IMG/VR virus record: IMGVR_UViG_3300045594_000115
Location: 1-37,190 of that record
Strand: one strand, 5' to 3'
Source: a virus
Length of the DNA stretch: 37,190 bases
The notes beneath the pieces were generated by a model. It had not been told where the DNA came from. It ran no database searches and saw nothing but the letters and a program-made list of their open reading frames with translations. Positions 7,841 to 26,485 of this stretch are shown here, piece by piece. Position numbers and translations under genes: made by a program. Position 1 is the stretch's first letter; each line of letters starts with the position of its first letter.

Positions 7841-7897
7841 AAAGGTAAAACGAACATATGTTTGAATTTTAACCAAAAAACTACACATAGAAAGGAT

Positions 7898-9112
7898 ATG
7901 AAAGCTGTGCGTAAATGGAAAGAAGTTCCTCACCATCCTAATGTTTATAGGTATGAAACACGACGCGGTACTCGATATGGTATTCGTCGTGGATTTAAAA
8001 ATAGTGTAGGAAAGCGCGATGAATACACAAGGTCTGGATTTACAAATTGGCACGATGCAGAAGGCGAATTAAAACGATTTGAAGCATCTTTAGTTACGGG
8101 TGGCATTAATCCTATAACTCACCGCGGTGTTACCTTGAATGCTTATTTTGCTGCCTTGGTGAAGAACCGTGAGGAGCTCGGCGTTTGGAGGCCAGCTACA
8201 GTTATTCAAAAAAAGACATATTATAGAAAGCACCTACAAGAAAGATTCGGGAACCGCCCAATGAGCAAAATATCAAGATCAGAATATCAGCAGTTTATTG
8301 ATGAGAAGATCAAATCAGGTTTGGCTCAAACCACCATGCGTACACTTAACTCAGTCATGCAGATCATCATGAACGATGCTGAGCACAACGATATTATCCG
8401 TAAGAACATGCTCAGAGGCATCCTCATAAATGGTGCCAAACCGCCTAAAGATGTTTCTATTACCGATGAAGACTATGCAAAGTTTATGGACACTGCCCAG
8501 AAACTATTGAATAAGTATCAGCTTACAATGCTGTATCTTTTGACTCTTGGTGAGCGGCGTGAAGAACTCGCTGGCCTCCAATTTCGTTCATTTAAACGAG
8601 GAACAACCGAAGGCAAGACATACTATGAAATCACTTATTACGTTGGCAGAACGCCGCAGCAGCCATTAGGCGGTCCCTTAAAAACTCCTAGCAGCTATCG
8701 CAAAAATTATGTTACGGGCCCAATTATTGAGTACATTGACTATTCCCTTCAGTATGCTAAGAACATTTTGACACGTACTCATCGTGAAATTGGGCCAGAG
8801 ACATTCATATATCTGAATGAGAAAACTGGGATGCCAGTTCATCCGAGCAACATCAACCGAAATCTGTTTCAGCGTGTTAAAGATGCAACTGGAATTGAGC
8901 TTCGTCCGCATATGTTGCGTCACTATTTTGCAACCCAAGCACTTCAGGACGGTTTGCCTCAAATGTCCGTCATGCACTGGTTAGGTCACAAAAACATCGA
9001 CATGACAAACGACTATACCAGACCGACACGAGAGGGCAGCCTGAAAGTTATTAATGGCATGGGCCCAATCTTGTTTAAAAACGGTACCGCCGGCCCTGAC
9101 GGTACAAAATGA
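7898..9112 (+). CDS. int: Tyrosine integrase
   Basis: C-terminal catalytic signature ...LRPHMLRHYFAT...HWLGHKNIDMTNDYTRP (R, HxxR, H, Y). The ATG at 7898 with a GAAAGGA RBS is preferred over the 7862 TTG. Confidence 0.9.
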   Translation: MKAVRKWKEVPHHPNVYRYETRRGTRYGIRRGFKNSVGKRDEYTRSGFTNWHDAEGELKRFEASLVTGGINPITHRGVTLNAYFAALVKNREELGVWRPATVIQKKTYYRKHLQERFGNRPMSKISRSEYQQFIDEKIKSGLAQTTMRTLNSVMQIIMNDAEHNDIIRKNMLRGILINGAKPPKDVSITDEDYAKFMDTAQKLLNKYQLTMLYLLTLGERREELAGLQFRSFKRGTTEGKTYYEITYYVGRTPQQPLGGPLKTPSSYRKNYVTGPIIEYIDYSLQYAKNILTRTHREIGPETFIYLNEKTGMPVHPSNINRNLFQRVKDATGIELRPHMLRHYFATQALQDGLPQMSVMHWLGHKNIDMTNDYTRPTREGSLKVINGMGPILFKNGTAGPDGTK

Positions 9113-16996: not shown

Positions 16997-19900
16997 CTAC
17001 CCTCCAATCGGTCGGAAATAGCTACTAACGGCTGCGTCATTGGCGTCTGCTTCCTTTACCATACTGTTGATTCCGTTCTTATCGACGTTGTTTTGAACGT
17101 AGATGTTTGGCGTTACTCGTTCGCTTGCATCAATTGACTGAGTGACGTCTCCAGAGCTGAACTGCGCGCCCGCGTTTGACAAGTTGCTGATGTTTGCCGA
17201 CATATTGTCAGAAATATCGCTTGCCATGCCAGAAACCGTCTTCTGAACAGCCCCGAATGAATTTTGCAGTCCTTGATTCAAGCCACCCATGATTGCATTA
17301 CCAGCAGGAATTAACAGCTTGGCATCATAGCTAATAGGCCCTTTGTGCTTGCGAATCCAAGAAGCAATCCCACCGACAAAGTCCTGAACCTTACCCCATG
17401 CTGCCTTCAAGCCGCTAAAGAAGCTGTCCATGATAGCACGTCCAGCATCTAGCAAATTGAAGTGCATTAATGCATTGAAGCCTTTTTTGATACCATTGAC
17501 GACATTTGAGACGATATTAGTAAACCCATTCCAAATGTTTCTGGCTCCATTGACAATGTTAGTAGCAGCGTTTATTACGGTTGACTTGATGTTGTTCCAT
17601 GCTGACGAGAAGAATGAAGTGATACCATTCCACAACCCAGAGAAGAATCCTGGCAAAGCATTCCAAATGTTTTTAGCTGTGCTTACGGTGCCATTCCACA
17701 ACCCAGATAGAAATGAAACGACACTATTCCAAATAGACTCAGCGGTGGAGACAATGCCATTCCACAAGCCACTGAAGAATGAACCGAGGGCGTTCCATAT
17801 TGCAGAAGCGCCCGAAACAATGCCATTCCAGACTGCTTCGATAACAGACGTGAATAGATTCCATGCCGTTTGGGCATAGGTAACAATGCCGTTCCAAATA
17901 CCGCTAAAGAATTGAACTAATCCCGTCCAAATTTGACCAGCGGCAGAGACAATGTTGTTCCAAATCAATTGAAGGTCTGAACTCAGGTTATTCCAGCCGC
18001 CACTAATGAAGTCAAGAATGATTAGAATTGGCCCCATAATTACTGACTTAAGCAGGTTCCAAACACCTTTTGCGATATTAACAATTCCGTTCCAAATCGA
18101 AGTTAGAGCTGGTCCGAAAGTATTCCAGATGTTAGTTGCCACGGATACAATGCCTTGCCATAGTCCCGAGAAAAATGAGCTGATTCCTCCCCAAACAGAA
18201 GTGGCAATATTGACAATGCCATTCCAGATTCCAGAAAGAAATGATGTTAGCCCATTCCAAGCACTCGTGGCACCATTAACAATGCCAGTCCATAAATTGC
18301 TGAAGAATGTAGTCACTGAATTCCAACCGTTTTGAACTCCCTTAGCGGCATTACTGAAAGTTTGAGTTATACCGTTCCACAACCCGCTGAAGAATGAAGC
18401 CAGACCATTCCACATACTCTTGAGTCCCGAAACAAATTCAGACCAAATCTTTTGGCCAGTTTTTGTTTTAGTAAAGAAATAGGTGAGACCCGCAACGAAT
18501 GCAGCAATTCCAGCAATCAAAAGTACCCATGGATTTATACCCAAGATAAATCCAAACGCTTTCCATACACCGCCGGCCGTTTTTACGATAGTCCCGAAGT
18601 TAGTGATAACGGATATAACGCCTCTAATAGGGCCAATCATTTTAGAAAAAACACCGAGAACGCTTGAAAATCCGCCAATGGCTAATCCAATTACTTTGAA
18701 AGCACCGACAGCACCAAAAATTTCCGCTGCAAATGATTTAACGATGTCGTTAGCAAACGCTGCTTTAACAATAGCTGCGATTGGCTTCAAAACAGCCACC
18801 ACTCCGCTTATAGCGACCTTAACACCGTCAAAAATTGCTTTCCATGGTAGATTAGCAATAAAGTCCCCAACGGCAGTCATCGCTTCCATTGCGGCTATTC
18901 CGAAATCTGTAACAGCTTTTTTGATTCCGTCAAATATTCCCGACATTTTCCCGTTACCAAATGCCGAATTAAAAGCATCTCCGACCTTTTGAGCAATACC
19001 AATTAGATTGACAAACGCAACATTGGCCAAACTACCAACTAGGCTCCAAATGGTTTGCAAAACGGACCCGACTCCTTGGAGAACGGAACTGAGTCCATTC
19101 ATCGAGTCGCCCTTCCCCAAGTTGCCTAGTTGTGTCTTGATGTTCAAGACCAATGCCGAAAATGGAGAAAAGAATTTTCCGATTGATGATATAACAGAAT
19201 CAAAATTAATAGCGCCAATCTTATCAATGATTCCATTAATGGCGCCAATAGCGATTTTAGACATTTCTTGCCATGCAGGTTGGAGCTTGTTCGCAAGAGT
19301 TTCCTTGAGACCATCCATGGCCTGACCGATGGTCTTGTAACTGGTGGCCATATTTTGGAAGGCTTTACTATTACCAACTTTAGAAACAGCATCGAAGAAG
19401 TCGGTGGTCTTAACCTTCCCATCTTGTATATTCTTGATGAGTTCTCCAACACTCATGCCCATCTGCTTTGCGACTGCGGCCATACCGGCTGGTGTCTGCT
19501 CAAGCATGAGGCGGAAGTCTTGCCATTGAATTGTAGGTTTGGCCGCCGCCTGTACGCTCTGTTGCATCAGGGTCTTCATGGCCTGTTGCGGGTTGTCAGT
19601 TGCTGCTGCCAGCCCGCCCATGCCTTTCACCAAGTTTCCGACCCCTTTCACCCCCACCGCAGCAAACTGCGAGTAAGCAGAAGCCATGTCGGAAGCAGAG
19701 TATACGGTCTGCTGGGCATATTTTTGCAGTGACTTTTCAACCGTATTAATTTGTCCCGGAGTTTTGCCGAGAAACTTCATATTACCTTCGAACGTCTGCC
19801 AAGCGGCGCTTGAATCGTTCAGTTCGGTGTACATGCCGCGAATGCCGTTACCGATTGCGGACATTGCTGAAGAGCCCACCTTGGCAGCCACGCCGAAGAG

Positions 19901-20047
19901 CGCCCCCATCTTGAGAAAACCGCCGCCGACTTTTTGGCCCATGCTAGATGCTGAATCCGTGCCAGCTTTTACGGATGAAGACAGTTTCCCCATGGCTGCT
20001 TGGAATGGCGCTATGTTTGCTGTGAATGTTGCGACTACGTTTGCCAT
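16997..20047 (-). CDS. Tape measure protein
   Basis: 1016 aa, Gly/Ala/Ser-rich with hydrophobic segments and WNGIV repeats. It follows the G/GT chaperones. Confidence 0.9.
17500..18430. repeat. Tandem 66-bp (22-aa) repeats inside the tape measure gene, with Trp every 11 residues
   Basis: CCATTCCACAACCC recurs at 17625, 17691 and 17757 (period 66). The protein motif (F)[17 protein letters not shown] is repeated more than 10 times. Confidence 0.8.
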
Positions 20048-20502
20048 TAGCTACCACCTCCAAATGCGGCATTGAGTTTCTTAATCATTTCGACATCAGG
20101 CTTTCTTTCTCGATTGCCACTGCGTTTGAGTACCTTTTGTTCGGCTTTGTCAATGTTCTTGTAGCCAACCTTGACTGACCGTTTAGGATTCTTTGCATTC
20201 TGAATGTTGGCAATGTTGACAGCAAGCTCCATCAGATCGCGCCGCATATCAACATCACGCAAAAAAGACCCTTCCAGCATTGAACGGGCTTCCCACATGT
20301 ACAAATCGAATGGCATATTGGGATCATATATCCCATGCCGAGCAAAATCGGTTAAGAGAGACTCTTCTTCATTGCGTCCAGGGTATCCTTGGTCGCTGCT
20401 TCTTGAATCTTCTCTTCGGCTGTCTTGTTCTTCTTGTCCGTCAATGCTTTCCCGTATTTTTCGGTCAAGTTCAGCCAACGTTGTGCTGCGTGTTTGAAAA
20501 AA
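20047..20502 (-). CDS. Tail assembly chaperone, T segment (expressed as a G-T fusion by -1 frameshift)
   Basis: The -1 frame is open from the slippery site through 20047. Its stop overlaps the tape measure ATG (TAATG). Confidence 0.6.
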
Positions 20503-20792
20503 CCAGATTCATGAAGCTCCTGCTCAACTTCTTTGAACAGTTCCTGCGACTTACCGTCTTCTTCGGCCTTGTCGAGTGCGTCCATGATGTCATCATCTGT
20601 GTATGACTTCGGTAACAGCACGCGTAATGCTTTGAATAATGCCATATCATCATCAGTCACGAATGCCAGCCAGATTGAGCTTGCACCATCGTTGGCACCT
20701 TCAGCGGAGCTGTACAGTTTGTTAGCGCGGAACAACGCACGGAAATTGAACTTTGCTTCTACAGGTTGATCTTTTACTTGAATTTCTAACAT
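20352..20792 (-). CDS. Tail assembly chaperone G
   Basis: 146 aa, located between the major tail protein and the tape measure. It overlaps the -1 frame ORF. Confidence 0.75.
   Translation of the reverse strand: MLEIQVKDQPVEAKFNFRALFRANKLYSSAEGANDGASSIWLAFVTDDDMALFKALRVLLPKSYTDDDIMDALDKAEEDGKSQELFKEVEQELHESGFFKHAAQRWLNLTEKYGKALTDKKNKTAEEKIQEAATKDTLDAMKKSLS
20496..20502 (-). promoter_or_regulatory. Candidate -1 programmed frameshift heptamer U UUU UUC
   Basis: In the G frame the codons are GGT TTT TTC (an X XXY YYZ pattern). The -1 frame then reads [15 protein letters not shown]... with no stops. Confidence 0.55.
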
Positions 20793-20855
20793 GAATATCC
20801 TCCTGAATTGTCGTCTCAGATCGGCCGTAGCCTACTCGTCTCTGTGTGTGACTAA

Positions 20856-21488
20856 TTAAGCGTGAGAAGTGGTTGTGGTGGTTGACGTTGCAGATCCATC
20901 TGCAAACTCGCCGGCTTTTTCGCCAGGGCGTTCGAATGCGTAGAGCTGATGTAGCATTGCAACTTGTGCATCAGAAAGAGGGAACGTTCCCGGCGTGCCA
21001 TCTTCGTTTTTGTCAGCAAGTTTGCCGATAATGTTTAAAGTGAAGTCAATCTCGGAGAAGCTATCTTCGTCTGAGATGTCGGCACTATCAACAACACCAT
21101 AACCAAACATTGCCGGATAAGCTTTGTGGTCACCTTCTACAACGGCCAGACGTTCATCGACAATGACACGCCATACTTTGACCTGTCGGCCTTCGTGCTT
21201 GGCGTCAATGATGATTTCATGTGCTTTATCGCCCGGAACCATGTAAGTTGTAAGCTCAATGCTGTCTTCGTTGGTGGATGCGGCAATGACACGACCCATC
21301 TTGGTTTGCTCATCAAGAGAATCACCTTCAATGTTTGTGTCGCCGGACTCTTGGTGAGCTGGCAAGATTGCAGGACTGCCAATTGGTGCCACTGCTGGGT
21401 TAGTTGATTGGATGAAGTACCAAACATCTTTACCACGATATGGGGTGTCTTTTACAAATTCGATTCCGTTGTTTACTGGAATTGCCAT
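20856..21488 (-). CDS. Major tail (tube) protein with a Thr-rich C-terminal tag
   Basis: Position upstream of the chaperones and size of 210 aa. It ends ...DGSATSTTTTTSHA*. Confidence 0.8.
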   Translation of the reverse strand: MAIPVNNGIEFVKDTPYRGKDVWYFIQSTNPAVAPIGSPAILPAHQESGDTNIEGDSLDEQTKMGRVIAASTNEDSIELTTYMVPGDKAHEIIIDAKHEGRQVKVWRVIVDERLAVVEGDHKAYPAMFGYGVVDSADISDEDSFSEIDFTLNIIGKLADKNEDGTPGTFPLSDAQVAMLHQLYAFERPGEKAGEFADGSATSTTTTTSHA

Positions 21489-21490
21489 AA

Positions 21491-21856
21491 TTAATAGTCT
21501 CCTTCTAAAGTAATGAGAAGCATACAGCGACGCAATGGTGTGCTATCGCCCATGCTTGTGTCGATTGAATTAGATGCCGTTAATGACTGCCATCGTGTCA
21601 CTTTGCTAAGCGACCATTTCACCTTGCGAACGAAGTCCTCCCATTCAGCCGGTGGAGTGTCGATACTGTCGTAGATGTCGATCTGCTGGCCAACGCTCGA
21701 AAGTGTCCCTGTCTTGGATGACATGTCAGCATCAACGTGAACATTCACAAAAACTAATGGTAATGTGCTCTTAGCGTTTGGCTGAACGAATACAGTATTT
21801 AGCCCGTCAGCTGTCAATTGTGTTTGAACATCTTCGTACCATTGAGAGAGTGTCAT
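21491..21856 (-). CDS. Tail terminator / tail-to-head joining protein (assigned by position)
   Basis: 121 aa, located directly upstream of the major tail protein in an SPP1-like gene order. Confidence 0.55.
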   Translation of the reverse strand: MTLSQWYEDVQTQLTADGLNTVFVQPNAKSTLPLVFVNVHVDADMSSKTGTLSSVGQQIDIYDSIDTPPAEWEDFVRKVKWSLSKVTRWQSLTASNSIDTSMGDSTPLRRCMLLITLEGDY

Positions 21857-22227
21857 TTGAACGTGGCTGCCTCCTTCAACTTGTCAATTGTCGTTTTAAT
21901 GAACAACGATTGTGCCGCTGAAACGGCCGGACGAATGAATGGCTCGGCTGACATTTTGTAGGTGCCAAATTCAACAAAGGAAGAATAATCAGCCTTGGCA
22001 TTAACACTTCCAGTCACAGATGTAGCTGTCTTCTTAACTGGCTCAACACTAATGTTGTTTGCCATGTATCCGGTTCTTTTTGGTGCCACCTGTTTTGCTG
22101 TTGCTTGTACCTGACCGGTAGTGACCTTCATCGCTGATGATGCGGCTTCAATAGTCGCTTCCGCTGTCGTGCCTAGTTCTTCCATCAATTTATCGAGTCC
22201 AGACCATGTGACATTGGTATTAGCCAT
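21853..22227 (-). CDS. HK97 gp10-like tail component
   Basis: The sequence ...KRTGYMANNISVEP...ADYSSFVEFGTYKMSAEPFIRPA resembles the HK97 gp10 family. The start was moved to the ATG at 22227, which follows GGAGGTG. Confidence 0.65.
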   Translation of the reverse strand: MANTNVTWSGLDKLMEELGTTAEATIEAASSAMKVTTGQVQATAKQVAPKRTGYMANNISVEPVKKTATSVTGSVNAKADYSSFVEFGTYKMSAEPFIRPAVSAAQSLFIKTTIDKLKEAATFK

Positions 22228-22516
22228 TGCTTGCACCTCCAGACACGATAAACACGGTTGACTTGCGATTCACAAAAGTCTTGTTGATTGTCAATTTGAC
22301 ACCATCAAGCTCAATCTCGTTCACAGGCAGTGCGGGATTCTTTACGTAAATCTCGTAGGCCATGGTGTTCACAAGTCCGTATACAGACAACTCTTGTGCA
22401 CTGGTGATTGGGATTGTCAGGCAAGTGACTGTCTCGCGCGTCTCTGTTGGCCTGTCATGCAATGGATCAGCCGGTGGTAACTTCCTGATGAGGGTGATTC
22501 GATTGTTGTATCTCAT
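22220..22516 (-). CDS. Head closure / head-tail adaptor protein
   Basis: 98 aa. Synteny after the gp6-like connector. TAATG overlap with the upstream gene. Confidence 0.65.
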   Translation of the reverse strand: MRYNNRITLIRKLPPADPLHDRPTETRETVTCLTIPITSAQELSVYGLVNTMAYEIYVKNPALPVNEIELDGVKLTINKTFVNRKSTVFIVSGGASNG

Positions 22517-22878
22517 TACACAAACCTCATTCCCGGTCTTCGGCTTTGTGATGACTCACGATAGACGTCAAGGCCGTCAGCATATTTAGACAGATCAATG
22601 GTTTCCCATGTATTTGATACATTGCCCTCACCGCTGGCCGTTTTGCCTTCGTCACCAAGGCGGTTATACATCTTTACCACAACGTCCTTGATTACCCATG
22701 TGACCGCATCCGGAACAGTCTGGTTAACTACACCGTCTTGGTTGATATAAGCCAGCACGCGAGCATTCACGTCATTAATAAGGTCGTTTAGCAAGTCATC
22801 TTGCAGCGTATCGGTCAAACCGATGCGAAGTTTCACACTTTTCAAAACATCTGCATTAGTATCTGAATCAGCCATCAT
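22516..22878 (-). CDS. gp6-like head-tail connector protein
   Basis: MMADSDTNADVLKSVKLRIGLTDTLQDDLLNDLIND... is a typical connector N-terminus. The ATG overlaps the stop of the GT-like ORF (ATGA). Confidence 0.7.
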   Translation of the reverse strand: MMADSDTNADVLKSVKLRIGLTDTLQDDLLNDLINDVNARVLAYINQDGVVNQTVPDAVTWVIKDVVVKMYNRLGDEGKTASGEGNVSNTWETIDLSKYADGLDVYRESSQSRRPGMRFV

Positions 22879-23753
22879 TTCACCGCCTTTACTGCTTGCA
22901 CATACTTGTATGAGCACTTCGACTTGTCGACGAAACTCAAATCATCTTCAAATGGCGTGTGATTAACGTACTTGCCTTTGAAGAACAAGCGTTTGTCATT
23001 CACTGTCACGCCAGCATTGTGCATGATCTTGGTTTCATTCCATCGCTTGACTGGATCAGTAGCCCAACAAAAATCGAGCTCATCACTGATGACGGGCCCG
23101 ATGTTGAAGTACATCATGTTCCAAAGTTGCGACCACATTTCTGCGGTCCATTTCTGAATATTGCTGTCGACTGTCTGCAAATATTGCCACAGTCGGTTGC
23201 TGTCGGCATACACCTTGCGCCAGTATTCTACTGACGGGTGACTGATGATCCACTGGGCACCACCGGAGTTGTGATTGATCGTTTCAAGCGAGGCCAACGT
23301 GACTCCGACAATGTCAGCCATGCGTTTCAGGATATCTTCTCCGTGTTCGCACTGCTTGATATAGTCAACGCTGATGTAGCTCAACGTGTTGCTGCACAAC
23401 CAACGATCAGTCTTTGCTTTCAGCTTGCGGAAGTCAGGCCGTTTTCGGAAGATGACATCGCTATCGAAATAGAAATAGTCCTTGTTCTCACGCTCAGGAT
23501 CTTCTGCAAGATATTGCCACCAAAGCCAAGGCTTCACAGATGGAATATATTGCTTGTCTGAGCGCTTGTCCGTGTACGTGTGTACTTCTACTCCATATTT
23601 GATTGCAAGCGTTTCTGGCACCTTAGAATCATGCATAGTGAAGAGCAAAACGACATCTTTCATGTCAAACCCGACACTTTGCAGATTGGTTAGGCAGACT
23701 TCCAACTCCCACTCAAAACGCTTAATGGCAGGTTGACACAAAATAAGCTTCAT
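22875..23753 (-). CDS. Putative GT-A-fold (DxD) glycosyltransferase embedded in the head-tail operon
   Basis: GGAGGA RBS before the ATG at 23753. An N-terminal beta-strand MKLILCQP is followed by YFYFDSDVIF, which resembles the YLDxDxxV motif of nucleotide-sugar transferases. The fold call is not verified by alignment. Confidence 0.5.
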   Translation of the reverse strand: MKLILCQPAIKRFEWELEVCLTNLQSVGFDMKDVVLLFTMHDSKVPETLAIKYGVEVHTYTDKRSDKQYIPSVKPWLWWQYLAEDPERENKDYFYFDSDVIFRKRPDFRKLKAKTDRWLCSNTLSYISVDYIKQCEHGEDILKRMADIVGVTLASLETINHNSGGAQWIISHPSVEYWRKVYADSNRLWQYLQTVDSNIQKWTAEMWSQLWNMMYFNIGPVISDELDFCWATDPVKRWNETKIMHNAGVTVNDKRLFFKGKYVNHTPFEDDLSFVDKSKCSYKYVQAVKAVK

Positions 23754-23821
23754 TCTGTCCTCCAATCAGCCGCCCGGTTTCCCGTACTGTCCTATTTCGA
23801 TAGGCGACTTAGATCAATTAA

Positions 23822-24739
23822 TTAAGCGTGTGAAGTTGTCGTTGTGGTAGATGGTGCCACAGTCGAAGTCGTAGTAGTTGCTGACGTGCCGGCAGTGAAG
23901 ATTGCCTGACGGTTGTCATCGCTGATCCACTGGCCTGCCTTACCGGCACCTTGCAAAGCAACGCCTGCAAAGTTCTCGGATTGAATCGTCCGAACAACGT
24001 TGATGCCAGTGAATGCACGGCCAATGTTGTCAGGCGAGAAGATGATGGCCTTGCCAGCCATGTAACGGGTAGGCGTCTTGGTAACAACGATGTCACGGAA
24101 GCGAACAATGCCGTTTTCATCAATGTTCACAGCGGAACCTTTGTAGCTGGTTACCAATGTGTGGTCGATGATTGCGTTGTAGACTTCGGCAGTAACGTAT
24201 GCACGAACCGGGACAACAACTTCAAGATTCGTGTAGCGTTCTGATGCTGCTTCGAATACCTTGTTGACATCTTCAACACCGCCCAAGTCAGCGGCCGCAC
24301 TTGCAACCAAGTAAGCACCCAATTTGCCGTTGAACAGACGTGTCTTAGCTTGTGCTTGCAAGTTCAGGCGGTCAGCAACAGCAGAGTTCAAGTCTGTGTT
24401 GACAGTGAACTGATCAATGCCTTCGTTGAAGCTCCAATTGAAGTCGTACGGTACATCAATGTCGCTGTATACGATCTCTTTCATTGGCCCAAAGCGGTTA
24501 GAATTGCTGGTGCCAGAGCCAAACGCAACGTTAGGGTCAGTGTTGTAGTTGCCAACAGCAACGGGCACATCATTTGCCTTAACACTGAACGCAATCGCGT
24601 TGTTTTGAATGCCATCGAGTGCTTGCAAATCACCAAATGTCGGTGTGAATGTGCTTTGCACGCCGAAGACGGTTTGCATCATTGCAATGAACTGTTTCTG
24701 ATAGAGACGTACTGGTAAATTGTTGTTTTCTGTAGCCAT
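23822..24739 (-). CDS. Major capsid protein with a Thr-rich C-terminal tag
   Basis: 305 aa, located directly after the scaffold gene. It ends ...SATTTTSTVAPSTTTTTSHA*. Confidence 0.85.
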   Translation of the reverse strand: MATENNNLPVRLYQKQFIAMMQTVFGVQSTFTPTFGDLQALDGIQNNAIAFSVKANDVPVAVGNYNTDPNVAFGSGTSNSNRFGPMKEIVYSDIDVPYDFNWSFNEGIDQFTVNTDLNSAVADRLNLQAQAKTRLFNGKLGAYLVASAAADLGGVEDVNKVFEAASERYTNLEVVVPVRAYVTAEVYNAIIDHTLVTSYKGSAVNIDENGIVRFRDIVVTKTPTRYMAGKAIIFSPDNIGRAFTGINVVRTIQSENFAGVALQGAGKAGQWISDDNRQAIFTAGTSATTTTSTVAPSTTTTTSHA

Positions 24740-24752
24740 AACTAGCTACCTC

Positions 24753-25304
24753 CTATTTTTTCTTGTATTGTGACATGATTTTCTTGAATGGATCGTCGGC
24801 ACCATCAAGGGCAGAAGCGCCATTCTTAGGTGGGTCGGTTTGCAGCTTGGATTCCACCTGCTTATTGACCGTTTCCTGAATTGTCTTTTGAATGTTCTCA
24901 ACAGCCGTCTTGATCTTGTCAGCATCACCCAACGCTACTAAAGAGTCGGCAAAATCAGTCGGCAGTCCTTTGTCAACGAGTAATGACTTCGTGCTTGTCG
25001 ACAACTCGCGCTGATTGAGTTCAGCCTCACGCTTATCTAGTTCTGCCTGTCGCTGTTTCTCAAGCTCTTTAGCCTTTTCATCTTCGGTCATCTTAGCAAG
25101 CCTAGCGCCTTCACTCTTTGCGTCCTCAAGTGCCTTGGCTTGTTCCTCTTGCCACTTAGCCTTGGCTGTTTCAAGCGCCTTAGCTGCACGCTTATCGGCC
25201 TCACTGTCAAGCTGAGACTGCGTATATGTGGTAGGTGCCTGAGTAGTCGTTTCAGTTGTCAGAGTTGATTCAGTTTCTTCCTTAGTTTGTGTTTCTTCTG
25301 CCAT
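24753..25304 (-). CDS. Scaffolding protein
   Basis: Highly charged E/K/A-rich coiled coil of 183 aa, located upstream of the capsid gene. Confidence 0.75.
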   Translation of the reverse strand: MAEETQTKEETESTLTTETTTQAPTTYTQSQLDSEADKRAAKALETAKAKWQEEQAKALEDAKSEGARLAKMTEDEKAKELEKQRQAELDKREAELNQRELSTSTKSLLVDKGLPTDFADSLVALGDADKIKTAVENIQKTIQETVNKQVESKLQTDPPKNGASALDGADDPFKKIMSQYKKK

Positions 25305-25453
25305 GATGGTTCCTCCTGTTTAGCCAAAAACGAATAGACGTGCTTAACGACCCCAGCCACGCCACAAGGCCCAGCCACGGTCACACGTCCATCACTTCAC
25401 GCTTATTTTTGAGTAGTTTAGGGACTTGCTCAGGTCACGATACTATTTTCTAA

Positions 25454-25663
25454 TTAATCGCCAGAATGGTAGTTTGCTGTTAAGACGTTGGTAGCAATTT
25501 TATGTGCTTCATCTTCGTCTGCACCGTTCTCAACTGCACGATCATGAACCGTCATGTATAAATCGGTTGCCATTTTGTAATACTGCTCTTCCTCATCGTC
25601 CATAATGAGCCCCTCTATCGCAAAGCTTGTGTATTTTCCAATGTCAATCTTTTTGTCTGCCAT
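25454..25663 (-). CDS. Acidic hypothetical protein, 69 aa
   Basis: GGAGGGAG RBS. Located between the head morphogenesis and scaffold genes. Confidence 0.6.
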   Translation of the reverse strand: MADKKIDIGKYTSFAIEGLIMDDEEEQYYKMATDLYMTVHDRAVENGADEDEAHKIATNVLTANYHSGD

Positions 25664-25672
25664 GGCTCCCTC

Positions 25673-26485
25673 CTAATCAACGTCAACTTCATCGCCAGAA
25701 GCATAAGCGGCCCATGAGCAAAGGCAGTTAGGGTGAGCTGGAATCATGCCCTCGGCTTGTTTCAACGTGTAAACATCACCGTTGTGTTGCTTGCAGATGT
25801 CGCACGCGCCTGAGTTGATAACCCACACGACTTTCTTATATCCAGCATCACGAGCGTTAACGATACTTTGATGAGCCATGACACGGTCGCTTTCGGTTCT
25901 GATAATGCGGTCCGACTGATACTTCATGACACCAAATTCCTTGCGAAGCGCTGGGCTTTGTGTGATTGGGTTGCTGTGTGTCAGCAGCGCATTCTTCATC
26001 ATTTTTTTGAGGTCATTACGTAATGCGTCTTGATTTGACCAGATACGATCGCTCCATGTTGCACCATCGAACATCTTATTGATTGCTGATAAATCCGCTT
26101 TGATATGCTTGCCGTAAATTGATGATCCAAGCTTGGCTGTTTCTTCAACAAGATTGCCTAGCGATGATCCAATGTACCGAACTACCGAAATAGCCACGGC
26201 AGTTGAGTATACATAGGCAGCATATGACAGCAGTTCATCGTTGTTAGCAACTGATTTATGCTGAACGCCTGCTGACTGAGCATCTCGATCAAGCTGTTCT
26301 TTCAACTCGGGATCGTAATACCGCGAATCATCAGCGTGTGTGTAGTCTTCGTGTTTCTCATTGAACGCATACCAGAACGCCATGAAAGCTGCTGTATATT
26401 TGGCAACATCAATTGCTATCTGGCGGTGTTGCTTGTCTTGCTTGTCCGCGAACGCCTTGATCCGTTCCTTCGGTGTCTGTGTCAT
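25673..26485 (-). CDS. Minor head / head morphogenesis protein (SPP1 gp7 / Mu F-like)
   Basis: C-terminal signature ...CDICKQHNGDVYTL...IPAHPNCLCSW. It follows the portal gene. Confidence 0.85.
   Translation of the reverse strand: MTQTPKERIKAFADKQDKQHRQIAIDVAKYTAAFMAFWYAFNEKHEDYTHADDSRYYDPELKEQLDRDAQSAGVQHKSVANNDELLSYAAYVYSTAVAISVVRYIGSSLGNLVEETAKLGSSIYGKHIKADLSAINKMFDGATWSDRIWSNQDALRNDLKKMMKNALLTHSNPITQSPALRKEFGVMKYQSDRIIRTESDRVMAHQSIVNARDAGYKKVVWVINSGACDICKQHNGDVYTLKQAEGMIPAHPNCLCSWAAYASGDEVDVD

Follow-up and report, generated by a model that had tools for sequence, protein, structure and literature searches.

Glycosylation of the capsid by phage-encoded enzymes has been described for the mycobacteriophages Che8, Corndog and Myrna (PMC12363180 and PMC12691614, citing Freeman et al. 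2023), and mycobacteriophages are the only tailed phages for which we found natural virion glycosylation described (PMC12363180, PMC12691614, PMC12582341, PMC13313380). Here we describe a candidate glycosylation module in a 37,190-nucleotide stretch of viral DNA (IMG/VR record IMGVR_UViG_3300045594_000115, positions 1 to 37,190; hereafter the window), a 37.2-kb sequence that represents a complete temperate siphophage of the Lacticaseibacillus casei group. The major capsid and major tail proteins end in threonine (Thr)-rich tags with the same nine terminal residues, and a gene lying between theirs encodes a predicted glycosyltransferase (GT) of family phrog_4417. Full-text literature searches found no report of virion glycosylation in Bacillota phages, in keeping with a preliminary description of the window that knew of it only in a few mycobacteriophages and not in phages of lactic acid bacteria, and it goes unmentioned in the publications on the 521B genome and on those of the L. 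plantarum myophages.

Both here and in the mycobacteriophages a phage enzyme is paired with tails on abundant virion proteins, and Freeman et al. in 2023 reportedly located the mycobacteriophage O-glycans on extensions at the C-termini of capsid and tail-tube subunits. The two systems differ in enzyme family, in gene placement and in hosts (Bacillota here, Actinomycetota there), and the window's has a single enzyme, near-homopolymeric Thr tags and a glycosylation that is predicted only. Che8 has several enzymes, encoded away from its structural genes. In its workings the module in the window would resemble the mycobacteriophage system without belonging to it. No Mycobacterium phage has a relative of its enzyme that is detectable by sequence; a tblastn search of 50,697 phage records (E up to 1e-5) gave 77 matches, none of them in a Mycobacterium phage. 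A second comparison is with the cytoplasmic O-glycosylation of low-complexity regions rich in serine (Ser) and Thr in Gram-positive bacteria (serine-rich-repeat adhesins via GtfA/GtfB and GT8 extenders, and Ala/Ser/Thr-rich domains in lactobacilli), where, by analogy, the phage enzyme would likewise be a soluble protein modifying a disordered hydroxyl-rich stretch inside the cell with nucleotide sugars. The initiating enzymes of the adhesin pathways are GT-B proteins (GT4) and their substrates are exported adhesins with hundreds of repeats, whereas the phage tails have five to ten Thr at the extreme C-terminus of virion proteins.

Tagged virion proteins and the gene between them

Gene identities in the window were assigned by PHROGs, and the features central to the module are as follows.

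20856..21488, minus strand: major tail (tube) protein, 210 residues, predicted 22.7 kDa (phrog_238, 2.4e-47; TIGR02126, TP901-1 family, 6.9e-22, residues 15-155)
20859..20897, minus strand: C-terminal Thr-rich tag of the tail protein, GSATSTTTTTSHA, with 9 Ser/Thr; final nine residues at 20859..20885 (from the sequence)
22875..23753, minus strand: candidate protein O-glycosyltransferase, 292 residues, soluble (phrog_4417, also named 'prophage pi2 protein 34')
23822..24739, minus strand: major capsid protein, 305 residues, predicted 32.8 kDa (phrog_840 major head protein, 3.7e-120, residues 4-286)
23825..23887, minus strand: C-terminal Thr-rich tag of the capsid protein, TSATTTTSTVAPSTTTTTSHA, with 15 Ser/Thr; final nine residues at 23825..23851 (from the sequence)

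The final nine residues of both proteins are STTTTTSHA, and the DNA encoding them differs at five synonymous third positions (TCT ACC ACA ACG ACA ACT TCA CAC GCT in the capsid gene, TCA ACC ACC ACA ACC ACT TCT CAC GCT in the tail gene). The preliminary description had noted this identity and the five differences, which are seen in both open reading frames (ORFs); its two codon strings are right but were assigned to the proteins in swapped order, which is immaterial. A run of five Thr (T5) is found among real genes only in these two (six-frame scan, 403 stop-to-stop segments of at least 40 residues), and in both proteins it stops three residues ahead of the stop codon; the earlier statement that no other virion ORF bears this tail is confirmed. 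About 0.015 such runs would be expected at a Thr frequency of 6.7% in ~11,000 coding residues, as against the two found. The tags extend past the ends of the family profiles in both proteins, with the last 19 residues of the capsid protein outside its phrog_840 match. A programmed frameshift or an extension ORF following the tags is ruled out; after the capsid stop codon there are 68 nt and then the enzyme start codon.

The gene between the tagged genes, earlier pointed to as carrying a DxD motif, has an ATG start codon and a ribosome-binding site (GGAGGA), and its product has DSD at residues 97-99. It matches phrog_4417 ('unknown function') over its full length (1.1e-148), with residues 5-296 of the 296-residue TTG-start ORF corresponding to 1-292 of the 292-residue protein. 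There is no match to the enzyme sequence in Pfam, NCBIfam or PDB (phmmer), a PDB profile search gave nothing relevant, and no Pfam family, Glyco_transf_8 included, matched any of 40 family members at E up to 10. None of the sequence libraries thus recognises the enzyme, and its fold was found only through structure prediction.

An AlphaFold model built on 40 homologues has a predicted local distance difference test score of 96.7 and a predicted template-modelling (TM) score of 0.93. The top 50 Foldseek matches in PDB are all GT24, GT8 or GT6 enzymes (probability 1.00, TM 0.42-0.54), the best being the UGGT catalytic domain (4e-8), glycogenin, an Anaerococcus GT8 protein, LgtC and the blood-group GT6 enzymes; the matches are retaining GT-A enzymes, several of which (UGGT, glycogenin) act on proteins, and those in BFVD are GT8-like viral proteins. 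The likeness to GT8, GT24 and GT6 enzymes such as glycogenin, LgtC and UGGT includes the E-values of the best structural matches (4e-8 to 4e-6), a DxD following a hydrophobic strand and an invariant His at about position 245, while the enzyme departs from them in having no Pfam match, TM of ~0.5 and identities of 10-13%. The motif FYFDSDVIF is a classic strand-plus-DxD, and in an alignment of 155 diverse homologues D99, H245 and K259 are invariant while D97 is kept by 154. D97, D99 and H245 would be metal ligands, in the same arrangement as those of LgtC (D103, D105 and H244), and the conserved residues would have catalytic roles. By its modelled structure the product is a GT-A, GT8-like glycosyltransferase, and the GT-like nature proposed earlier is borne out by the predicted fold and the conserved DxD and His.

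The ATG of the adjoining head-tail adaptor gene (22878..22876) overlaps the glycosyltransferase stop codon (22877..22875) as ATGA, and there is no terminator-like site on the minus strand from the capsid gene to the adaptor, a terminator and promoter scan giving nothing above shuffle level; the enzyme gene therefore lies within the late structural operon. Because no transmembrane segment is predicted, and from the operon position and the DxD, the modelled enzyme is probably a late, cytoplasmic, metal-dependent nucleotide-sugar transferase.

Distribution of the enzyme and the tags

The strongest argument for a functional unit, made from sequence comparisons, is the joint gain or loss of enzyme and tags in two unrelated structural lineages, because the tags sit in genes apart from the enzyme cassette and yet come and go with the enzyme. 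The first lineage is that of the window, whose closest relative is the Coetzeevirus phage R3.3 (88% nucleotide identity over 20000-26000; capsid proteins 94.7% identical). The Coetzeevirus relatives Silenus, ATCC8014 and phiJL-1 have capsid and tail proteins 65-75% and 73-77% identical to the window's, but their capsids end ...AIFTA[ST]PKA, precisely where the tag of the window starts, and their tail proteins have no Thr run. The second lineage is that of the Pleetrevirus phages R9.1, iLp84 and PLE3, which also carry the enzyme gene (77-88% nucleotide identity). Their capsid (347-350 residues) and tail (200 residues) proteins are of other families than those in the window, yet both are tagged and the endings match (...TTTTTTSHV in R9.1, ...TTTTTTTSK in iLp84 and PLE3). 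Phage CL1 is closely related to R9.1 (capsid 96.7% identical over 337 residues, tail 90.9% over 186), but the tags are in R9.1 only, and CL1 has no enzyme and neither tag. The structural regions examined in Silenus, ATCC8014, phiJL-1 and WC29P3 hold neither Thr-run tags nor the enzyme gene, and J-1, in which the capsid protein is lengthened by a joined coding sequence, has no tags. Six-frame searches of the complete Silenus, CL1 and ATCC8014 genomes turned up neither a family member (best E >1) nor a single T5 run. Tags were thus looked for in relatives without the enzyme, where the preliminary description took their presence to speak against glycosylation, and were not found; these relatives lack both.

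In the enzyme-less relatives the slot between the capsid gene and the adaptor is filled by a small Big_2 Ig-like ORF (CL1_9, ATCC8014 gp07, phiJL-1 ORF64b, WC29P3_00020).

Slot equivalent to window 22875..23753: Big_2 ORFs at L216:6747-6926, L093:5688-5915, L094:5939-6133 and L095:5848-6153

Big_2 Ig-like decoration domains, which occur on or beside capsid and tail-tube C-termini, share with the enzyme and its tags this genomic slot and a probable display site, and differ in being a folded protein domain as opposed to an enzyme with a short acceptor tail. The glycosyltransferase and the Big_2 ORF look like alternative surface-decoration cassettes.

At 84 loci from close relatives (4 GenBank phages and 80 from IMG/VR) the Thr-tagged ORFs are nearly all capsid or tail proteins. 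Both proteins are tagged in 66 of the 68 IMG/VR loci with both genes in range, as against only 140 tagged among 1,665 same-strand ORFs of at least 70 residues. Every one of the 120 closest capsid clusters (at least 90% identical) bears a tag. Their 21-residue tails come in 40 distinct forms, the last Thr run being 5-7 residues long, and the tail may evolve faster than the capsid core. The search from capsid homologues gave relatives at least 90% identical only and hence no untagged sample, and the whole genomes of the enzyme-less relatives were used as the control sample instead.

More divergent enzymes (25-65% identical) are present in phiFL1A, 1706, bIL285, VPE25, SA2, phiCTP1, Iacchus, LP65 and 521B, each with Thr-rich C-termini on virion proteins that adjoin the enzyme gene or are in the same structural module. 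One example is Enterococcus phage phiFL1A, with a capsid ending ...TTTTTTTQG and a tail protein ending ...TTTTTTTQASSK, and a second is Lactococcus phage 1706, whose capsid and tail proteins both end ...TTTTTTTTTHHD. Clostridium phage phiCTP1 has tags on a head protein and the tail tube, and the L. plantarum myovirus Iacchus on two small proteins next to the enzyme gene. In LP65 and 521B, whose enzymes are 25-32% identical, the neighbouring virion proteins terminate in Thr-rich repeats, and one of these, LP65 orf51, is annotated as a structural protein verified by mass spectrometry.

Among GTDB representatives, 55 loci with the enzyme were located. Most are Bacillota prophages, and others lie in Chitinophaga, in Elizabethkingia and in a Saccharimonadales metagenome-assembled genome (MAG). 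Tagged ORFs lie on the enzyme's strand within 4 kb in 46 of 51 species-level loci (loci of at least 5 kb), a 47th, in S. aureus, having TTTS-repeat tags below the strict Thr-tag filter; none of 629 opposite-strand ORFs is tagged. Scanning from the tag side, for eight consecutive ACN codons in viral contigs, the enzyme family was found in seven of 120 stretches, and in all seven the Thr-run ORF adjoins the enzyme gene, at no more than ~50 bases in five; the family is found on ~253 of 2.9 million contigs. The co-occurrence of tag and enzyme gene, for which the preliminary description suggested a survey, is thus strongly positive in close and in very distant phages, and the tagging of both proteins holds in most close relatives, while some phages tag the tail protein only or other virion proteins.

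Tags are also present on decoration-type proteins (phrog_14018, Ig-domain proteins). The small mucin-like proteins of phrog_14018, a family that bears the label 'major tail protein', are made up largely of Thr runs, and their gene is directly upstream of the enzyme gene in siphophage iLp84 (gp8, L003:5887-6264), myophage Iacchus (gp072, L091:19610-19996) and a Lentibacillus prophage (L232:3630-3998), forming with it a two-gene cassette that crosses morphotypes. In Bacillaceae prophages (L245:1861-2178, L258:1872-2207) there is a third Thr-tagged protein just after the capsid gene, of ~105 residues and phrog_749 ('unknown function'), and its endings (e.g. ...TTTEAV, ...TTTVI) are not always that of the capsid and tail proteins. 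Two IMG/VR contigs of only 5-6 kb (L136, L184) each have two virion ORFs with matched Thr tags (...TTTTTTTTTAP and ...TTTTTTAP; ...TTTTTTTAAP and ...TTTTTTAA) and no phrog_4417 member within those contigs; the logic of the tags may be shared by further phage groups, perhaps with a different enzyme.

The residues following the Thr run are identical between capsid and tail proteins in 19 of 31 species-level prophages compared with 3.1 by shuffle (p <1e-5), and the matched endings include the rare KG, AAV, SGAGA and EAQ. Within the shared suffixes of 20 phages, 94 of 191 codons differ, against 123.6 expected under independent codon choice. The earlier argument that identity is held at the peptide level generalises, in that endings match within a phage though the codons have diverged, and as judged from these sequences the match appears to be held mostly at that level. 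Recent DNA copying is ruled out by the codon comparison except in L241, a prophage in an Anaerorhabdus MAG. Its capsid and tail tags (TTSTTTTTTTKG) differ at 0 of 12 codons, unlike those of all other phages examined, and look like a recent copy between the two genes. The matching may come from recognition of the C-terminal end by the enzyme, from a binding partner common to both proteins, or from occasional conversion with subsequent selection. In the casei group, endings vary (SHA, the commonest, SHV, SHG, SK, HG, KK, QA and others) and mismatched capsid and tail pairs occur, and the nonamer identity in the window is largely a lineage consensus. Concordance of the endings stands out clearly only in the phylogenetically broad set of prophages. 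The exact nonamer was dropped as a signal, the universal element being the Thr run and not ...SHA; of STTTTTSHA as first proposed, the Thr run stands and the exact ending does not.

The phrog_4417 family comprises 872 clusters at 50% identity in a library of 1.84 billion proteins. Carriers of the enzyme include strictly lytic phages, with hosts ranging over Clostridium, Staphylococcus and Lactococcus. Members are fused to GT2, Glyco_transf_7C, radical-SAM/SPASM, methyltransferase and PqqD peptide-recognition domains, contexts that, from the sequences, fit an enzyme acting on Thr of peptides or proteins, and the gene for the radical-SAM fusion is the second one downstream of a gene whose product has a T10 run. 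The PqqD-fused member P0155 (L220-L223:6001-7191) is in a bacterial cluster resembling those for ribosomally synthesized peptides that are post-translationally modified (RiPPs), with three or four precursor peptides of 38-49 residues (MVKAYKKPEFKTV.F..EDVITTS.G.ETPAPP...) that have Thr/Pro-rich ends, a second PqqD, an ABC exporter, and genes of GT52 and ScmC-like type; the cluster may encode a pathway to glycosylated peptides not described before. The presence of a PqqD fusion beside Thr/Pro-rich precursors recalls the glycocins, which are glycosylated RiPPs. The glycocin transferases SunS and GccA are GT2 enzymes. Unlike these, the phage members have no recognition domain and would act on full-size proteins.

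The proposed module and rival explanations

Our preferred reading, to which we give a probability of roughly three in four (0.74), is that the enzyme modifies the Thr-rich tails. The module would have three parts, a soluble GT-A-fold enzyme in the late operon and poly-Thr tails on each of the two most abundant virion proteins. Late in infection the enzyme would draw on a host nucleotide-sugar and O-glycosylate the hydroxyls of Thr, and perhaps Ser, in the flexible, disordered tails, in the cytoplasm and before or during assembly. Capsid and tail would come to bear short glycans in their thousands, each capsid subunit offering up to 15 sites and each tail subunit 9, and with a T=7 head of ~415 subunits and a tail of ~230, copy numbers that we assume from general knowledge and tape-measure length, each particle would carry several thousand sugars. 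Our best guess at the benefit is surface decoration (shielding, hydration, stability, or weak adhesion to host or environmental surfaces), because an Ig-like decoration gene fills the enzyme slot in relatives and the mucin-like phrog_14018 travels with the enzyme. We also consider it somewhat probable that phrog_4417 as a whole is a large family of protein Thr O-glycosyltransferases that sugar-coat capsids, tails and decoration proteins of Bacillota siphophages and myophages (including dairy, gut, Enterococcus and Staphylococcus phages), with endings that co-evolve in each phage, with relatives recruited to RiPP-like pathways, and with enzyme and tag forming a portable minimal cytoplasmic glycosylation system.

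Several points weigh against tail glycosylation. The fold similarity is moderate (TM ~0.5) and no glycosyltransferase sequence model matches. Near-identical enzymes in the casei group go with different and mismatched endings, and there the concordance is only weakly above shuffle (p ~0.02); the ending is therefore not a strict recognition element, and the shuffle tests ignore phage relatedness. The tail protein is tagged and the capsid untagged in bIL285, VPE25 and Staphylococcus SA2, and four Bacteroidota homologues among the GTDB loci have no Thr-tagged neighbour. The proposal presumes that both C-termini are exposed at the virion surface, and the papers on module-carrying phages give no biochemical or glycan data for virions. 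A Thr-directed modification other than glycosylation might also account for the enzyme and its tags.

In a rival explanation, an unlikely one, the tails are glycosylated but a Ser/Thr O-glycosylation system of the host performs the first transfer, and the phage enzyme only elongates or modifies the glycan. In lactobacilli, cellular proteins are O-glycosylated in regions rich in Ala, Ser and Thr, and GT8 enzymes are extenders in the serine-rich-repeat adhesin pathways. However, CL1 and J-1, enzyme-less phages from that host group, also lack the tags, which is unexpected if host enzymes used such tails, and the span of the module from Clostridium to Staphylococcus to Lactococcus favours a self-sufficient enzyme.

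It is quite improbable that the tails are unmodified hydrophilic 'hairs' or spacers, with the enzyme acting on host cell-wall polymers, teichoic acids or phage DNA and the linkage arising from a shared mobile cassette. Phages are well known to encode glycosyltransferases for host polymers or for DNA, the presence of sugar on the tails is what we infer, and the enzyme gene behaves as a mobile cassette in keeping 77-88% nucleotide identity across the unrelated Pleetrevirus and Coetzeevirus structural modules. The tags, however, are in other genes (~1 kb upstream and ~2.3 kb downstream), and a single cassette transfer therefore cannot bring them; they appear and vanish with the enzyme in two unrelated capsid and tail lineages. 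The occurrence of the enzyme in strictly lytic phages speaks against lysogenic conversion, the protein has no membrane segment, and its gene adjoins Thr-tailed virion genes and has no consistent placement with replication genes.

We regard as very improbable the idea that the tail common to the two proteins serves as a signal for assembly, chaperone docking or processing, perhaps cleaved off at maturation, and that the GT-A-fold protein is an assembly factor, non-catalytic or differently catalytic. The matching endings within a phage would suit a common binding partner, and tail tube C-termini touch neighbouring subunits in TP901-1 models (PMC10747895). Close relatives nonetheless assemble without tails or enzyme, the conservation of metal- and nucleotide-sugar-type residues in at least 154 of 155 members argues for catalysis, fusions to second glycosyltransferase domains point to sugar chemistry, and decoration-type proteins are tagged too. 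That the tails are functionless, through chance low complexity or recent DNA copying, is scarcely credible: ACN repeats could spread by slippage or conversion and the L241 tags are identical at 12 of 12 codons, but the two T5 runs far exceed expectation and both end three residues before the stop codon, the synonymous differences in the window are accompanied by near-saturated synonymous divergence in 19 other phages, and the pattern recurs in more than 100 loci.

If the enzyme does glycosylate the tails, virion glycosylation would extend beyond the mycobacteriophages and be widespread in phages of Gram-positive bacteria, by way of a mobile one-enzyme module, and a PHROG of 'unknown function' with several hundred clusters would gain a function. 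Phages related to therapeutic candidates (Enterococcus VPE25-like, Staphylococcus SA2-like) would be concerned in their immunogenicity, clearance and mucosal behaviour, and dairy phages (1706, P335-type, casei-group) in their stability and adsorption; tail glycosylation would also account for C-terminal peptides possibly being missed in bottom-up proteomics. The enzyme and tag would also be a very small pair for cytoplasmic glycoengineering.

Other genes of the window

Three further features, all assigned by PHROGs, are as follows.

7862..9112, plus strand: integrase
16997..20047, minus strand: tape measure
22516..22878, minus strand: head-tail adaptor (PF05135, 8e-13; phrog_132)

The minus-strand genes are in the order endolysin, tail tip genes, tape measure, chaperone pair, major tail protein, terminator, Neck1, minor head protein, adaptor, the 292-residue gene, capsid, scaffold, minor head protein, portal and terminases. 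By PHROGs, no further sugar-related gene and no methyl- or acyltransferase is present in the window. Upstream (5') of the tape measure gene, the overlapping minus-strand ORFs 20352..20792 (tail chaperone, phrog_183) and 20047..20478 resemble the usual tail assembly chaperone frameshift pair. Finally, the 38.2-kb genome deposited as 'Aeromonas phage AS1' (PV831789.1) encodes a capsid protein with 73.7% and a tail protein with 72.6% identity to the window's, similar to L. plantarum Coetzeevirus phages, and its host label looks doubtful.

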